Shown here: positions 274 to 54,581 of the stretch, one piece after another
How positions within the stretch are numbered: position 1 is the stretch's first letter
Layout of the letters: the number at the start of each line of letters is the position of its first letter
Sequence record: PZ445524.1
Length of the DNA stretch: 64,000 nt
Origin: a phage
Reading direction: 5' to 3' (one strand)
Position numbers and translations under genes: made by a program
The notes under the pieces: generated by a model
Databases searched by the model: none
The model's input: only the letters and a program-made list of their open reading frames with translations
What the model was told of the DNA's origin: nothing

Positions 274-663
274 TTAACGATTAAAATCAGCCGCAATTGT
301 TTCCGCAACAATTTGAGCAGCAACAATTAGACGTTCATCTGCGTTACCGCAATAATCATCTTCAAGACGTTCACCACATGAAGTCATAATAAATTTAGCA
401 CCGGCGTTTAGGGATTCTGTAGTATGTTTGCGCATCAGTTCAATCCATTTATTACTCACTTCACAATCGATAGCTTCATAATATGCATGACGAGCAGGTG
501 CAGATTTAATTTTGTTCTGAATAACTTCCATCGCGTTATCAGAAAGAGACAAAACCCATGCTCGACGAATTTTATTTTGGTTTTGTGGATTTGATTCAGA
601 ACGCACGTGTTTTGGCTGAATATCTTTTACGTCAACAGTATAATTCACAGTAATTTTAGTCAT
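274..663 (-). CDS. rpbA: RNA polymerase-binding protein RpbA
   Basis: 129 aa ORF between 45 and 46, as in T4 synteny. Confidence 0.75.
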
Positions 664-672
664 AATACACCT

Positions 673-861
673 TTAGTCATAATAATCAGTAACAGTCCAA
701 GCTTCATTTCTATTGGACATTATTTTTGTATATTCTGCTTTAAATGCATTCCTAAGCATAGATTCAGTAACTATATGCTCTTCATTAGAAAAATTATTTC
801 TCAGAATATATCGTTTTATTTCAGGAATAGTTAATAGATGCTGTCCAGTTGAATATTCCAT
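673..861 (-). CDS. hypothetical protein (45.2 position)
   Basis: 62 aa ORF, same strand, tight packing. Confidence 0.5.
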   Translation of the reverse strand: MEYSTGQHLLTIPEIKRYILRNNFSNEEHIVTESMLRNAFKAEYTKIMSNRNEAWTVTDYYD

Positions 862-24649: not shown

Positions 24650-24862
24650 TCATTTTTGCCCTGTATTTACTTTATGCCGATGCACGGCCTTAACTTTATC
24701 AAGGTATTTTTCAAAATTTCGCAATCTAGTATAGTCTGCCGGAGATTGGTTGAGTGATACTTCTCGACGCAAAGCTGAAATGATATTTCCAACTTCCCTA
24801 CGAATTTCATCTAATTGAAGCACAGTAAGATTGCGAAGTTGCTTTTCAGTTAATTGTAGCAT
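24650..24862 (-). CDS. hypothetical protein (rI.1 position)
   Basis: 70 aa ORF. Confidence 0.5.
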
Positions 24863-24904
24863 ATATACCCCTTTAGTTAGATAAACCTATTTATAACTTT
24901 TGCA

Positions 24905-25486
24905 CTAACCGAGCTTTTTAGTTAATTCATTCCAATGTTTTCTACACAAAGAAACATAAATTTCATCACCAATACAGATTTGATTACCTTCTTTAACGGG
25001 TGTTCCATCTTCCATTAATCGAGCTGTCATAATAGCTTTTTTACCACAATGACAAACTGCCTTTAGTTCAATAAGTTTATCTGCAATCGCCAAAAGTTCT
25101 TTAGAACCTTCAAACAATTTTCCAGCGAAATCAGTCCTTAATCCATAAGCCATAACAGGAACATTATATGTATCAACAATTCGACTCAATTGATGCACCT
25201 GTTCAGTTTTTAAAAACTGGGCTTCATCTACAAATACGCAATGAATATCTTTTTGTGCTTCAGCCCATTTATAGAACTCGAAAATATCCATATCATCTGT
25301 AATAATATTTGCTTCCTGCCTAATTCCAATGCGAGAAACGACTTCACAGACAGAATCGCGAGTATCAATAGCAGGCTTAAGAACTAATACACTCATTCCA
25401 CGTTCTTTATAATTATGTGCAGCAGTCAAAAGAGAAGCAGATTTTCCAGCATTCATTGCTGCATAAGTAAAAATTAAACTCGCCAT
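24905..25486 (-). CDS. tk: thymidine kinase
   Basis: 193 aa; P-loop AAMNAGKS; C-terminal zinc-binding cysteines; T4 length. Confidence 0.9.
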   Translation of the reverse strand: MASLIFTYAAMNAGKSASLLTAAHNYKERGMSVLVLKPAIDTRDSVCEVVSRIGIRQEANIITDDMDIFEFYKWAEAQKDIHCVFVDEAQFLKTEQVHQLSRIVDTYNVPVMAYGLRTDFAGKLFEGSKELLAIADKLIELKAVCHCGKKAIMTARLMEDGTPVKEGNQICIGDEIYVSLCRKHWNELTKKLG

Positions 25487-25487
25487 T

Positions 25488-25676
25488 TTAATCCTTAGTT
25501 AAATTTTCTAAATATGTTTTTAAATCATTTTCAGCTTTATCGATAGATTTTACTAATTCGTAATATGTTTCGGCATCTCCATATTCAGAAGATATTTCAA
25601 AAGACAAATCCTTTTCTAAACTAATAATTTCACCAACTAAAAATAATATTTCGTTCTTTTGTTCGCGAGTAATCAT
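25488..25676 (-). CDS. small acidic protein (EQ-motif paralog family; tk.1 position)
   Basis: 62 aa; MITREQKNEILFL. Confidence 0.5.
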   Translation of the reverse strand: MITREQKNEILFLVGEIISLEKDLSFEISSEYGDAETYYELVKSIDKAENDLKTYLENLTKD

Positions 25677-25864
25677 AAGGAATTTATATAATCAATGAGT
25701 TCTTGTTCTTTATTATCGAATTCTTTAGAAAGTTCTTCGTACTCGTTTGCACTAAAAGGACCGCATTCATTACAAACTTTTTCCAATTCACTATTTTTAT
25801 CCATAACTTCGTGGATAAGAGAAAAGAGTTTGTCTTTTTGTTCTTTACTTAAACTCATAACCAT
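25673..25864 (-). CDS. small acidic protein (EQ-motif paralog family; tk.2 position)
   Basis: 63 aa; SLSKEQKDKLFSL. Confidence 0.5.
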   Translation of the reverse strand: MVMSLSKEQKDKLFSLIHEVMDKNSELEKVCNECGPFSANEYEELSKEFDNKEQELIDYINSL

Positions 25865-26082
25865 GTCACCTTTAAGCAGTATTCTTCTACATGCTGTTTA
25901 CGACCTTTCTTATCAATAAAGGTATATTCAACGAATGTTCCAATGTAGTCTTTATCTACATCATGTGGACTATTAATTGGACATTTAGTACGGCAAATGC
26001 GTTCCCATTGACGAATAATTACTGCCTTATTCTTTGGGTCATATGGATGTGGATAATGTATATTCATAATAATGGTTCCCAA
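25855..26082 (-). CDS. hypothetical protein (tk.3 position)
   Basis: 75 aa ORF. Confidence 0.45.
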   Translation of the reverse strand: MGTIIMNIHYPHPYDPKNKAVIIRQWERICRTKCPINSPHDVDKDYIGTFVEYTFIDKKGRKQHVEEYCLKVTWL

Positions 26083-26531
26083 TCAACAATCACAATTTCT
26101 AATTTAGAGGAATATGTATCTAAAATCCCCTCAATAATATCCCAGTTCCCTTTACCTATGCCTGCACCAATCCTAGGCATATAGATTGTAGGTTTAATCA
26201 GTTTATTTTCACCAAACTCATTTAATTCTAACATACAATTCATTAAAGCGGAATATTCAAAATTTGGCCCTGGTTGAAATTGAGTATAAAGATTAAAGCA
26301 GTAAGCTTTATGAGTCCTAAAGTATTTTTCATAGACTGAATAAGAACCAAGTTTAGTTACATCACCCCATTCAGTCTGTAATTTATCAGCTTCCAAAATT
26401 TTAGGGAAAGCTTTGGTTAATTGACCTGCGACTCCAGCTTTCATCGTATGAAAACAATTGCATCCATGCGCAATATTTTTACCTTCAGTGAAAAGGGCGA
26501 CAATATCGCCCTTGATATATTTTACAATCAT
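26064..26531 (-). CDS. putative macro-domain-like protein (tk.4 position)
   Basis: 155 aa; GDIVALFTEGKNIAHGCNCFHTMKAGVAGQL and IYMPRIGAGIGKGNW resemble macro-domain Gly-rich motifs; divergent. Confidence 0.4.
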   Translation of the reverse strand: MIVKYIKGDIVALFTEGKNIAHGCNCFHTMKAGVAGQLTKAFPKILEADKLQTEWGDVTKLGSYSVYEKYFRTHKAYCFNLYTQFQPGPNFEYSALMNCMLELNEFGENKLIKPTIYMPRIGAGIGKGNWDIIEGILDTYSSKLEIVIVDWEPLL

Positions 26532-26875
26532 TTAGTACTCAATCCTCGATTATAAGAATCTACCAAACGGTCAACCATTGAATGACAAGCGGCTTTATCT
26601 TTCTCCTCCGCAACTGAACATTCTAAGGTATTCCACTTTTTAGCATATCGTTTTAATAATGTATCGTTTTTGTATCTGCTTGATTTATCTCTTTCTCCGT
26701 CTTTATATGCATATATTAATTTCTGTGCAAATTCAGCTTGGCATGCTTTATTTTTCCCACAATAATCTGCCGCAGTGCGGTTTACATATTCTCTAATTTC
26801 AGTATATGATGTATCTGCTGACGCAGAAGCAGAAAATGAAATTAATCCTATACATAAAACCAAAATTTTAGTCAT
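26528..26875 (-). CDS. secreted/periplasmic protein with signal peptide (vs position)
   Basis: 115 aa; N-terminal signal peptide MTKILVLCIGLISFSASASA; four Cys. Confidence 0.5.
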   Translation of the reverse strand: MTKILVLCIGLISFSASASADTSYTEIREYVNRTAADYCGKNKACQAEFAQKLIYAYKDGERDKSSRYKNDTLLKRYAKKWNTLECSVAEEKDKAACHSMVDRLVDSYNRGLSTK

Positions 26876-27413
26876 TTACTATTTCCAAAAGTTTATTATT
26901 TTTAAGGTAATTAGCCTTTTCTAGGACTTCAGAAGCATATTTAGAACCAGCTTTAACATTCCATCCCGAATTATAAGAGGATATTGCTTTTCTTATATCG
27001 CCCTTATGTATATTTAACCAATAAGAAAGTTCAATGTACGCCCAGGAAGCTGAATTGGATCGTTTATTCAACATTCTTTTTATTTCAGCATCGGTCATAT
27101 TATAACCAAGTTCCTTAACTCTTGCTCGCATAGTAGGCAAATAATTTTGGAACATTCCGTAGGCGTGATGCTTTGGTTTAGATTTTAAATTAACTCCGCC
27201 AGAGCTTTCTTGCCATAAAATAGCAGCCATTATATGACCTAATCCGCTCTTGTGGATATTTTTGTGTGTTTTATATTTTCCATCCTTAGAAAATTGTTCC
27301 CCGAATTGATACGCGTAACGCATGTTATCGAGTTGGACATTACTGAAAGTATGCTCGGAGCTATGTGCCATCATTGAAATGGCCAATAGACCAGCGAGTA
27401 GTGCTTTTCTCAT
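26868..27413 (-). CDS. secreted lytic-transglycosylase-like protein (vs.1 position)
   Basis: 181 aa; signal peptide; AAILWQESSGG resembles the SLT-domain catalytic Glu motif. Confidence 0.5.
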   Translation of the reverse strand: MRKALLAGLLAISMMAHSSEHTFSNVQLDNMRYAYQFGEQFSKDGKYKTHKNIHKSGLGHIMAAILWQESSGGVNLKSKPKHHAYGMFQNYLPTMRARVKELGYNMTDAEIKRMLNKRSNSASWAYIELSYWLNIHKGDIRKAISSYNSGWNVKAGSKYASEVLEKANYLKNNKLLEIVND

Positions 27414-27420
27414 GCTTACC

Positions 27421-27882
27421 TCATTGAGTTTTAATTACTGCTTTAGAAGCCTTTCCTGGTAAACGACGACTGTTGATAATTGCCATCCTACATTGAAGTG
27501 ACGGGTCTTTGAACTTCGCGTTAGGTTTACAAACTGTAAATCCAAGCCAAAGATTTCCATCTGTGATTTCTAAACGTCCAGGACGATATTCAACCCCATC
27601 AATAAAATCCTCGTCAATGTCAGGACGCGGAGGCATACTCAGGAATTCATTAACTTCTAAAACATGGTCTTTTATTTTATGGAATAATTCAAAAACGTAT
27701 GTCTCATCAATCTCCCGTTGAATTGCGCGATCAAGAAGATGCTGAGAATATTTTAGATGAAACGATGAGACTCCTGCTGCTTTTGATGCCTCACGAATCT
27801 CATTGTTAATTTGACGAAACTCCGACTCAAAGTGACGACGAAGCTTATTTCGACGGATAAAAACTTCTGTATTGATAGTCAT
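27421..27882 (-). CDS. regB: endoribonuclease RegB
   Basis: 153 aa; T4 length and position; early promoter directly upstream. Confidence 0.8.
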   Translation of the reverse strand: MTINTEVFIRRNKLRRHFESEFRQINNEIREASKAAGVSSFHLKYSQHLLDRAIQREIDETYVFELFHKIKDHVLEVNEFLSMPPRPDIDEDFIDGVEYRPGRLEITDGNLWLGFTVCKPNAKFKDPSLQCRMAIINSRRLPGKASKAVIKTQ

Positions 27883-27910
27883 GTTATTCTCCTCTTAACT
27901 GATAGAAAAA

Positions 27911-27939
27911 TTATACCACAGTCAAGAGGAAAAGTAAAC
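27911..27939 (-). promoter_or_regulatory. T4-type early promoter
   Basis: minus GTTTAC ... TGGTATAAT. Confidence 0.5.
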
Positions 27940-27941
27940 AG

Positions 27942-28220
27942 TTATTCTTTAAATCTAATCAATTTATTCATAGACTTTGAAACTTCTGCACGAACCTCAT
28001 GTAGATTTTTGAGCTGTTCAAGACGCTGCGTATAGTAAGCAATTTCATCTTCTTCGAGACAGTCCTGTGAATCTTCTTTAAGATAACGTGCATAGTCCTG
28101 GAAAGCGTTACGAACTACTTCCTGGAAATCATCAAGACTTTGAATTTTCTTAGGAGCAGCAGATACACGACGAGGGGCAGTATAATACTCATAACCAAAC
28201 CCTGCGCTTAATTGAGCCAT
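27942..28220 (-). CDS. hypothetical protein (vs.3 position)
   Basis: ORF trimmed to internal Met at ATGA junction. Confidence 0.4.
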
Positions 28221-28486
28221 TAGTATTTTTCCTCTGGTTGGAACACTGCACGACAAGCCCACATACTGGCTTCTTTGAGTTTCGTTTTAGCAATAGTTAA
28301 CTGATCGAGGCTTTCGGCGTAATTCTTCGCGAGTTCATCATCTTCACAGCTATCAAATGCTTCCCAAAATTCATCGTATAAAGCATCAAAGATAAGTCCT
28401 AAACGAACTTCAGCGTCTTTAATAGCATTTACTTTACCGATTTTTTCGTCGGTGTGTGGCTTATAACCTTTAATATCTTCAATCAT
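28220..28486 (-). CDS. hypothetical protein (vs.4 position; possible Acb2-like by position only)
   Basis: 88 aa from ATG 28484-28486 with SD GAGGAAG; no motif-level support for function. Confidence 0.4.
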
Positions 28487-52773: not shown

Positions 52774-54581
52774 TGAAACAAAATATTAATATCGGTAATG
52801 TTGTAGATGATGGTACCGGTGACTACCTGCGTAAAGGTGGTATAAAAATAAATGAAAACTTTGATGAGCTTTATTATGAACTTGGTGATGGTGATGTTCC
52901 ATATTCAGCCGGTGCCTGGAAAACTTATGATGCTTCATCTGGGCAAACACTAAAAGCTGAATGGGGAAAATCATACGCTATTAATACCTCTTCTGGAAGA
53001 GTGACTATAAATCTTCCAAAAGGAACAGTTAATGATTACAACAAGGTAATTAGAGCTAGAGACGTATTTGCTACATGGAACATCAACCCAGTTACTTTAG
53101 TAGCTGCTTCCGGTGATACGATTAAAGGGTCTGCAGTACCAGTTGAAATTAATGTTCAATTCAGTGATTTAGAACTAGTGTATTGTGCCCCAGGACGTTG
53201 GGAATATGTCAAAAATAAACAAATTGACAAAATTACCAGTTCAGACATTAGTAATGTAGCTCGTAAAGAATTTTTAGTCGAAGTCCAAGGACAAACGGAC
53301 TTTTTAGATGTTTTCCGTGGAACTAGTTATAATGTAAATAACATCAGAGTAAAACATCGCGGTAACGAATTGTATTACGGTGATGTGTTTAGCGAAAACA
53401 GCGATTTTGGCTCTCCGTGCGAAAATGAAGGAGAACTAGTTCCTCTTGATGGATTTAATATTCGATTAAGACAGCCTTGTAATATTGGTGACACTGTTCA
53501 AATTGAAACATTTATGGATGGTGTATCGCAGTGGAGAAGTTCATATACAAGACGTCAAATTAGATTGTTAGATTCAAAATTAACGTCAAAAACTTCTTTA
53601 GAAGGAAGCATTTACGTTACTGATTTATCAACAATGAAATCAATTCCATTTTCTGCTTTTGGATTAATTCCAGGAGAACCTATTAATCCTAACTCTCTTG
53701 AGGTTCGTTTTAATGGAATTTTACAAGAATTGGCTGGAACAGTTGGAATGCCATTATTTCATTGTGTTGGTGCCGATTCAGACGATGAAGTAGAATGCTC
53801 TGTTTTAGGTGGAACTTGGGAACAATCTCATACCGATTATTCAATTGAAACTGATGAAAACGGCATACCGGAAATTTTACATTTCGATAGAGCATTTGAG
53901 CATGGTGACATTATCAATATCACCTGGTTTAATAATGATTTGGGTACATTATTAACAAAAGACGAGATTATTGATGAAACTGATAATCTCTATGTATCGC
54001 AAGGACCGGGAGTAGATATTTCTGGTGATGTAAATTTAACAGACTTCGATAAAATTGGTTGGCCAAATGTAGAAGCAGTTCAATCTTATCAACGCGAATT
54101 TAATGCTGTTTCAAATATCTTTGATACGATTTATCCTATTGGAACTATATATGAAAACGCTGTTAATCCAAATAACCCTGTTACATATATGGGATTCGGC
54201 TCATGGAAATTATTTGGGCAAGGAAAAGTTTTAGTTGGATGGAATGAAGATATTTCGGATCCGAATTTTGCTCTAAATAACAACGATTTAGATTCTGGTG
54301 GAAATCCTTCGCATACTGCAGGTGGAACAGGTGGTTCTACTTCGGTTACATTGGAAAATGCTAATCTTCCTGCAACTGAAACAGATGAAGAAGTTCTAAT
54401 AGTTGATGAAAATGGATCAGTCATTGTTGGTGGGTGTCAATACGATCCAGATGAATCCGGTCCAATTTACACTAAATACCGTGAAGCTAAAGCATCTACT
54501 AACTCTACTCACACTCCGCCAACATCAATAACTAACATTCAACCATATATTACAGTTTATCGTTGGATAAGGATTGCATAA
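52773..54581 (+). CDS. 10: gp10 baseplate wedge / short-tail-fiber attachment
   Basis: 602 aa; T4 length. Confidence 0.9.

Follow-up and report, generated by a model that had tools for sequence, protein, structure and literature searches.

Gene tk.4 of a T4-type phage encodes a stand-alone macrodomain with a predicted Gln-type active site that probably acts against DarT2

The tk.4 locus

We analysed a stretch of phage DNA of 64,000 nucleotides (record PZ445524.1), hereafter the window, for which a preliminary description read from the letters had proposed a possible macrodomain protein at 26064–26531, in a tk–vs block. The ORF list of the window contains one ATG-started ORF of 155 amino acids with exactly these ends, on the minus strand, and both peptides quoted in that description are present in its translation (GDIVALFTEGKNIAHGCNCFHTMKAGVAGQL, residues 8–38; IYMPRIGAGIGKGNWDIIEGIL, residues 116–137). 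The ORF is real, and its setting was also named correctly: the adjoining ORFs match thymidine kinase, tk.1/tk.2 (small paralogues), tk.3, the valyl-tRNA synthetase modifier vs, vs.1 and RegB. The preliminary description gave no strand, and it missed both the identity of the gene as tk.4 and the missing catalytic lysine of DarG and TARG1.

Compared over a 2.1-kb stretch that includes the ORF, the window shows 99.3% DNA identity with Escherichia phage vB_Eco_F26, 98.9% with T6 and 98.6% with T4, which places its source in Tequatrovirus. Gene order around the ORF agrees with the T4 and T6 annotations, and this identifies the ORF, at the level of sequence, as the gene tk.4 of T4-type phages. The encoded protein shares 152 of its 155 residues (98%) with T4 Tk.4, falls with it into one 90% UniRef cluster and is identical to a protein that public databases name 'Macro domain protein', for example in Escherichia phage HY03. 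Other GenBank labels for the gene are 'phosphatase', 'high-affinity ADP-ribose binding module protein' and 'contains A1pp phosphatase motif'. A chance ORF would not be expected to match, as this one does, Pfam Macro, PHROG 335 (7.8e-65) and 168 homologues, nor to have so low a dN/dS (0.02–0.09 between the window tk.4 and its relatives). The features of the locus are collected in Table 1.

Table 1. Features of tk.4 and its boundaries in the window
Feature	Position	Strand	Basis
tk.4 / adfM, coding for a one-domain macrodomain protein of 155 aa	26064..26531	-	T4 identity, Pfam, AlphaFold2, Foldseek
ATGA overlap, vs stop (TGA) / tk.4 start (ATG)	26528..26531	-	sequence, ORF coordinates
ATGA overlap, tk.4 stop / tk.3 start	26064..26067	-	sequence
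Putative ribosome-binding region GAGGATTGAG	26538..26547	-	read from sequence; inferred
First Gly-rich ADP-ribose loop, residues 22–37 HGCNCFHTMKAGVAGQ, after conserved His-x-Cys-Asn-Cys	26421..26468	-	conservation, alignments
19-nt divergent patch encoding K31/A32 (gene nt 87–105)	26427..26445	-	nucleotide comparison with T4 tk.4
NLYTQ, residues 80–84; Q84 at the DarG K80 / TARG1 K84 position	26280..26294	-	hmmalign and profile alignments
Second Gly-rich (diphosphate-binding) loop, residues 119–130 PRIGAGIGKGNW	26142..26177	-	conservation, TARG1 alignment

The overlap of vs with tk.4 is annotated likewise in T4 and T6, as is the start of tk.3 4 nt before the end of tk.4; the whole of the 70-aa tk.3 product matches PHROG 2008. 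The putative ribosome-binding region lies within the 3' end of vs, 6–12 nt upstream of the tk.4 ATG. Scanning of 24800–28400 for promoters and terminators returned 14 promoter-like sites against 14.2 expected, none of them directly upstream of tk.4. Together with the ATGA overlaps, the lack of an above-chance promoter-like site directly upstream suggests that tk.4 is co-transcribed and translationally coupled with vs and tk.3. A plus-strand hairpin at 26493–26513, antisense to tk.4, does not exceed chance expectation.

Prior evidence linking tk.4 to DarTG2

Neither the domain nor the role is new: deposited records already describe the gene as encoding a macrodomain, and its part in countering DarTG2 was reported in 2025. 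When a DarTG2-expressing host was infected with a T4 transposon library, no gene other than tk.4 scored as a significant hit, and T4 with a clean tk.4 knockout became sensitive to DarTG2; the gene was renamed adfM, for anti-DarT factor Macrodomain (bioRxiv 10.1101/2025.11.20.689424, a preprint of November 2025). The need for tk.4 during growth on DarTG2 hosts was demonstrated there for T4 alone, and the sole basis given for removal of ADP-ribose from DNA by T4 AdfM was its structural similarity to DarG. Earlier work had reported T-even phages to be DarTG2-resistant as a group, had found that T4 lacking adfA and adfN is still resistant and had predicted a further anti-DarTG2 strategy in T-even phages (PMC11257639). 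The literature that we searched held no biochemical assay of the Tk.4 protein itself, and two reviews of NAD and ADP-ribose in viruses (PMC9503650, PMC8120803) do not mention it.

By its near-identical sequence and the synteny of vs, tk.4 and tk.3 within Tequatrovirus, we place the window gene in the T4 AdfM orthologue group. The preliminary description had suggested that the protein could reverse ADP-ribosylation of DNA by a host toxin, a suggestion that now has genetic support from this 98%-identical T4 orthologue (bioRxiv 10.1101/2025.11.20.689424). For its two other suggestions, degradation of ADP-ribose-derived immune signals and a counterbalance to the phage's own ADP-ribosyltransferases, our analysis found evidence in neither direction. 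A reading of raw sequence alone can thus recognise a macrodomain and correctly predict an anti-defence role.

Tk.4 is predicted to be a free-standing macrodomain

The sole Pfam match of the protein is Macro (PF01661), which scores 25.0 bits against a gathering cutoff of 22 (E = 1.9e-5) and aligns at profile positions 2–113 of 118 with residues 22–132. Searching PDB chains with the single sequence returned BT1257 (4e-8), yeast Poa1p (3.3e-5) and TARG1 (3e-3), with DarG macrodomains as weak matches. We then built a family profile from 107 aligned sequences of the 168 homologues gathered from a large protein database. Against the PDB this profile matched BT1257 (5.9e-20), TARG1 (2e-16), SCO6735 (5e3b; 7e-16), Poa1p (2.2e-14) and M. 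tuberculosis DarG (6.4e-14), and the MacroD-type viral macrodomains came behind (about 1e-3). DarG was the sole match to Tk.4 in the PADLOC library (1.7e-7, 29 bits), and the antitoxin DarG was its sole match in NCBIfam.

AlphaFold2 run without an alignment gave an unusable model (pLDDT 38), which we replaced with one built from the 107-homologue alignment (pLDDT 95.9, pTM 0.91). With this model as query, Foldseek returned TARG1 (5.6e-10), Poa1p (2.4e-9), BT1257 (7.1e-9) and DarG (1.6e-7) from the PDB, the closest macrodomain matches having a probability of 1.00 and TM scores of 0.68–0.81. Nearly all of the top matches are natural macrodomains, the exceptions being designed serine hydrolases (OSH55 series). 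Tk.4 is accordingly modelled as a three-layer alpha/beta/alpha macro fold, and the matches of the model to TARG1, Poa1p, BT1257 and DarG point to a macrodomain that stands alone as a single domain and falls in the ALC1/TARG1-like class. Both the profile search and the structure prediction thus bear out the macrodomain call of the preliminary description.

An invariant Gln in place of the catalytic Lys

We aligned DarG from both species, TARG1, BT1257, PhiKZ gp104 and both Tk.4 alleles to the family profile, using for M. tuberculosis DarG a sequence 100% identical to 5M3I. The two motifs that had been singled out from the sequence as Gly-rich ADP-ribose-binding loops fell on the corresponding loops of TARG1 and DarG: M30-K31-A32-G33-V34-A35 on TARG1 MGAGIA and DarG MGKGIA, and P119-R-I-G-A-G124 on TARG1 PRIGCG and DarG PPLGxG. 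Over its whole length, the second loop PRIGAGIGKGNW aligns with TARG1 PRIGCGLDRLQW. The core positions of both loops (M30..G33-x-A35 and P119-x-I-G-x-G124) are invariant or nearly so among the 107 aligned members. In the first loop, G33 and A35 are found in all 107, G23 and N25 in 106, M30 in 105 and H22 in 102; in the second, P119, I121 and G124 are invariant, G122 is present in 106/107 and W130 in 104/107. N25 aligns with N23 of the PhiKZ AdfM.

The catalytic lysines did not follow this pattern. DarG K80 (FPTK) and TARG1 K84 (LITK) align with Q84 of Tk.4 (LYTQ), and the pairing of TARG1 K84 with Q84 was reproduced independently by hmmsearch. Q84 and Y82 are invariant in the family (107/107), and T83 is present in 105/107. 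TARG1 Asp125 is absent from Tk.4 as well, its column being occupied by G126 and, across the family, by Ala or Gly. In SCO6735, Gln85 is equivalent to the DarG and TARG1 lysines, and the Q85A and Q85E substitutions each abolish activity (PMC9411070). We therefore class Tk.4, from its aligned residues, as a Gln-type macrodomain like SCO6735 and not a Lys-type one like DarG; the equivalence of Q84 and SCO6735 Gln85 is transitive, running through the TARG1/DarG alignment and the published statement (PMC9411070).

The same columns bear on a role in housekeeping of NAD metabolites, in which Tk.4 would act, like Poa1p, as a phosphatase on ADP-ribose-1''-phosphate or would deacetylate O-acetyl-ADP-ribose. 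Sequence and structure searches both rank yeast Poa1p among the best matches, and the motif around its His23 (IHSCNC) lines up with the conserved Tk.4 residues H22-G-C-N-C. Database labels point the same way: PHROG 335 is labelled phosphatase, the T6 record mentions an 'A1pp phosphatase motif' and JGI labels Tk.4 homologues as OAADPr deacetylase. These phosphatase and deacetylase labels, however, were transferred by homology, and Poa1p has Ser where the Tk.4 family has its invariant Gln. Our analysis identified no source of Appr1p in T4 biology, and sensitivity to DarTG2 is the sole phenotype found in the literature searched. We consider a housekeeping role very unlikely. Appr1p and OAADPr activities could still occur in Tk.4 as side reactions.

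Two loop alleles and the distribution of the family

The window protein differs from T4 Tk.4 by three substitutions, T15 for Ala, K31 for Gly and A32 for Ser, the last two of which sit in the first Gly-rich loop and turn the MGSG of T4 into MKAG. Column 31 is Gly in 91/107 family members (85%), so that in the window allele a Lys replaces the first glycine of this loop. At the nucleotide level, 9 of the 16 differences between the window gene and T4 tk.4 fall within the 19-nt patch that encodes K31/A32 (Table 1), and codon 31 differs at all three bases. This clustering suggests that the patch arose by a short recombination event rather than by point mutation.

The K31/A32 allele is also carried by T6, SG1, PST and viral contigs L002–L004, and pairwise comparison of its carriers gave dN/dS values of 0.02–0.05. 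Lys or Arg recurs at column 31 in family members that are only 37–43% identical. We regard the allele as one under purifying selection and not as a defect of one isolate. From its presence in T6 and other phages, the low dN/dS, the recurrence of Lys or Arg and the resistance of T-even phages to DarTG2, we expect it to be functional and to behave like the T4 allele; the link between T-even resistance to DarTG2 and the K31/A32 allele of T6 is circumstantial. Two tk.4 loop alleles thus circulate in T-even phages.

It is conceivable that the patch is adaptive and that its two substitutions retune the predicted enzyme, either by shifting its substrate range (towards uracil-ADP-ribose on RNA or other DarT2 variants, for example) or by letting it escape a host factor able to recognise or inhibit such a macrodomain. 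We think this improbable; were it true, tk.4 would be a polymorphic arms-race locus among T-even phages.

By tblastn, homologues of tk.4 were found in 2,728 of 50,697 phage records (about 5%). The carriers are Straboviridae of many hosts together with phages that have genomes of about 86–92, 130–158 and 250 kb, and they infect Salmonella, Pseudomonas, Acinetobacter, Vibrio and other bacteria. An 85%-identical homologue occurs in the same tk/vs/regB context in 121-kb contigs, the T4-like records Av-05 and phiE142; we rejected its assignment to T5-like phages, the records being T4-like. Given this spread, the mechanism of Tk.4, once clarified, would be relevant to many phages.

Proposed action of Tk.4 against DarT2

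Tk.4 is probably a stand-alone, Gln-type glycohydrolase that restores replication by stripping single-stranded phage DNA of the ADP-ribose that DarT2 has added to its thymidines. On this model, tk.4 would most likely be made during infection within the regB–vs.1–vs–tk.4–tk.3 string of overlapping genes. Host DarT2 would attach ADP-ribose to thymidine of single-stranded phage DNA at TNTC motifs. Tk.4 would then bind the thymidine-attached ADP-ribose and hydrolyse the N-glycosidic link, and release of ADP-ribose would allow replication of the phage DNA to continue. We infer hydrolysis as the mode of action and thymidine-ADP-ribose as the substrate. Since Tk.4 has the invariant Q84 where DarG and TARG1 have their catalytic lysine, an exchange also seen in SCO6735, catalysis of the SCO6735 type is expected, in which the Gln (Q84) would position the substrate and water would start the reaction, with no lysine nucleophile. 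SCO6735 cleaves the thymidine-ADP-ribose that DarT makes, in vitro as well as in cells, and its presence rescues cells exposed to DarT (PMC9411070). Against a hydrolase stand the absence from Tk.4 of both the catalytic Lys of DarG and TARG1 and the Asp of TARG1, and the Lys at the first loop-1 glycine of the window allele.

These same features would suit a non-catalytic antagonist, with Tk.4 mainly binding and inhibiting DarT2 or shielding ADP-ribosylated DNA. The canonical catalytic lysine is missing, the window allele has lost the first loop-1 glycine, and the dead Q85A mutant of SCO6735 still blocks DarT by binding, more strongly than the DarG or TARG1 mutants do (PMC9411070). Strong conservation of the ligand-pocket residues N25, G33, A35, Q84, G122 and G124, however, is what would be expected of an enzyme, efficient hydrolysis is documented for its Gln-type homologue SCO6735, and the single domain of 155 residues leaves Tk.4 without the DarT-binding domain of DarG. 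On balance we find a mainly non-catalytic role unlikely; in view of SCO6735 Q85A, a partial contribution of this kind may still exist.

Removal of ADP-ribose from RNA or protein was also weighed, the candidate substrates being uracil-ADP-ribose on RNA, the marks of host ART toxins and those of the phage enzymes Alt, ModA and ModB. TARG1-like macrodomains, the Gln-type SCO6735 among them, efficiently reverse uracil-ADP-ribose on RNA (PMC13036486); SCO6735 acts on protein substrates too (PMC9411070); and T4-like phages encode three ADP-ribosyltransferases (PMC9503650, PMC8120803). But no phenotype or assay ties Tk.4 to RNA or protein substrates, and thymidine marks on DNA account for the DarTG2 phenotype. 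Alt and the Mod enzymes modify arginine, a linkage that macrodomains generally do not cleave. An RNA or protein substrate is, in our judgement, highly improbable as the main target.

Comparison with known systems

The closest relative is T4 Tk.4/AdfM, which has the same length, the same conserved residues, the same position between vs and tk.3 and the same ATGA overlaps; the window protein is unlike it in having T15, K31 and A32 where T4 has A, G and S.

SCO6735 of Streptomyces coelicolor (PDB 5E3B) resembles Tk.4 in having Gln at the catalytic Lys position, in being without the TARG1-type Asp and in standing alone, with no paired DarT. Unlike Tk.4 it is bacterial and, at 181 residues against 155, longer by 26; overall sequence similarity is low. 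An extra mobile-loop element of SCO6735 has been credited with its high activity on DNA (PMC9411070).

The DarG macrodomains of T. aquaticus (5M31/5M3E) and M. tuberculosis (5M3I) match the Tk.4 model in Foldseek at 1.6e-7 to 2.0e-7 with a TM score of about 0.76. They belong to the same macro subclass, contain the conserved Asn and both Gly-rich loops and have DarT2 as their opponent. In DarG the catalytic residue is K80, a DarT-binding domain follows at the C terminus and darT lies next to the gene; Tk.4 has none of the three. We considered filing Tk.4 as DarG and rejected this: it reaches 24.3 bits on the NCBIfam equivalog model NF048014, whose cutoff is 250, and matches only profile positions 2–146 of 338, its domain architecture and the residue at the catalytic Lys position do not fit, and its neighbours are vs and tk.3, with no darT.

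PhiKZ gp104 is, like Tk.4, a stand-alone phage macrodomain that counters DarTG2, and the two have the Asn in common (N23 there, N25 here). It removes DarT2 marks from DNA in vitro, the N23A mutant being less active, and was independently given the name AdfM (PMC13309987, Cell Rep 2026). In contrast to Tk.4, gp104 is Lys-type and DarG-like, with the motif FPTKDNW, and is imported into the phage nucleus. Placing Tk.4 in the subfamily of the PhiKZ AdfM was rejected, gp104 scoring 36.6 bits and Tk.4 211 against the Tk.4 family profile, which makes them only distant relatives; judged by these profile scores and residues, the name AdfM has been given to members of two different subfamilies.

Human TARG1 (OARD1) is the best structural match to Tk.4, although its K84/D125 dyad is absent from the phage protein. 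The best sequence match is BT1257 of Bacteroides (2FG1/2AFC), whose returned PDB entries are listed as a protein of unknown function and in which the Gln is also present (MIGQ against LYTQ in Tk.4). The Gln-for-Lys active site, common to SCO6735 and BT1257, is a detail that the present analysis adds, as are the separation of Tk.4 from DarG and from the PhiKZ AdfM and the K31/A32 allele of the first loop. For the chemistry predicted here, SCO6735 would provide the precedent of a Gln-type hydrolase and PhiKZ gp104 that of a phage macrodomain.

A clustered allele in the ADP-ribose loop of tk.4

Nucleotide comparison of the macrodomain gene tk.4 with its T4 counterpart revealed that 9 of the 16 differences are packed into 19 nt spanning codons 29–35. 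This cluster produces K31/A32 in place of T4's G31/S32 in the first Gly-rich loop, an allele that is common to T6, SG1 and PST. The cluster in the substrate loop looks like a short recombination patch. We also found that, in a deposited T4 genome (Escherichia phage T4, OL964745.1), the tk.4 match at 53142–53586 is split in two and the annotation places two macro-domain CDS in this stretch, which suggests that tk.4 is frameshifted or disrupted in that stock.

Features in and around tk.4 (window positions unless stated)
Feature	Position	Strand	Remark
tk.1 and tk.2	25488–25864	minus	
RB32ORF110c/111c (two extra ORFs)	L013 (T6 sequence) 456–838		window point, 25864/25855 junction (tk.2/tk.3)
19-nt cluster	26427–26445	minus	within tk.4
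Terminator-like hairpin	26493–26513	plus	8-bp stem then T-run; antisense to tk.4 5′ end
vs	26528–26875	minus	
vs.1	26868–27413	minus	

Neighbouring genes and the tk.4 transcript

tk.1 and tk.2 are paralogues, both belonging to a single family of small proteins of unknown function (PHROG 653; E = 2e-22 and 5e-25), and the T4 annotation has two further PHROG 653 copies past tk, on the side facing away from tk.4. In T6 and several close relatives, two additional small ORFs, RB32ORF110c/111c (~370 bp), separate tk.2 from tk.3; the pair is missing from the window and from T4, and DNA matches of the region to those relatives are consequently split into two pieces. On the other side, vs and vs.1 begin with hydrophobic, signal-peptide-like N termini (MTKILVLCIGLISFSASASA... 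and MRKALLAGLLAISMMAHS..., respectively). This is unexpected for vs, which is annotated as modifying the valyl-tRNA synthetase, a cytoplasmic enzyme. Some records name vs.1 an SLT transglycosylase. In minimal medium, vs was the gene with the strongest depletion (HIDEN-SEQ preprint).

A RIL-seq study of T2 reported chimeras in which tk.4 mRNA is joined to ArcZ, an sRNA of the host, and called tk.4 a 'putative thymidine kinase' (bioRxiv 10.64898/2026.06.19.733364); this is a mislabel of a macrodomain gene. The antisense hairpin is one of three terminator-like hairpins between window positions 24800 and 28400, a count compatible with the chance expectation of 1.5 ± 1.1.

Two macrodomain proteins named AdfM

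The name AdfM was coined independently for PhiKZ gp104 (PMC13309987) and for T4 Tk.4 (10.1101/2025.11.20.689424), and according to the former paper, in Cell Reports, there was no earlier report of a macrodomain Adf. The two proteins are members of separate macrodomain subfamilies: PhiKZ gp104 is Lys-type and DarG-like, whereas T4 Tk.4 is Gln-type and resembles SCO6735 and BT1257.
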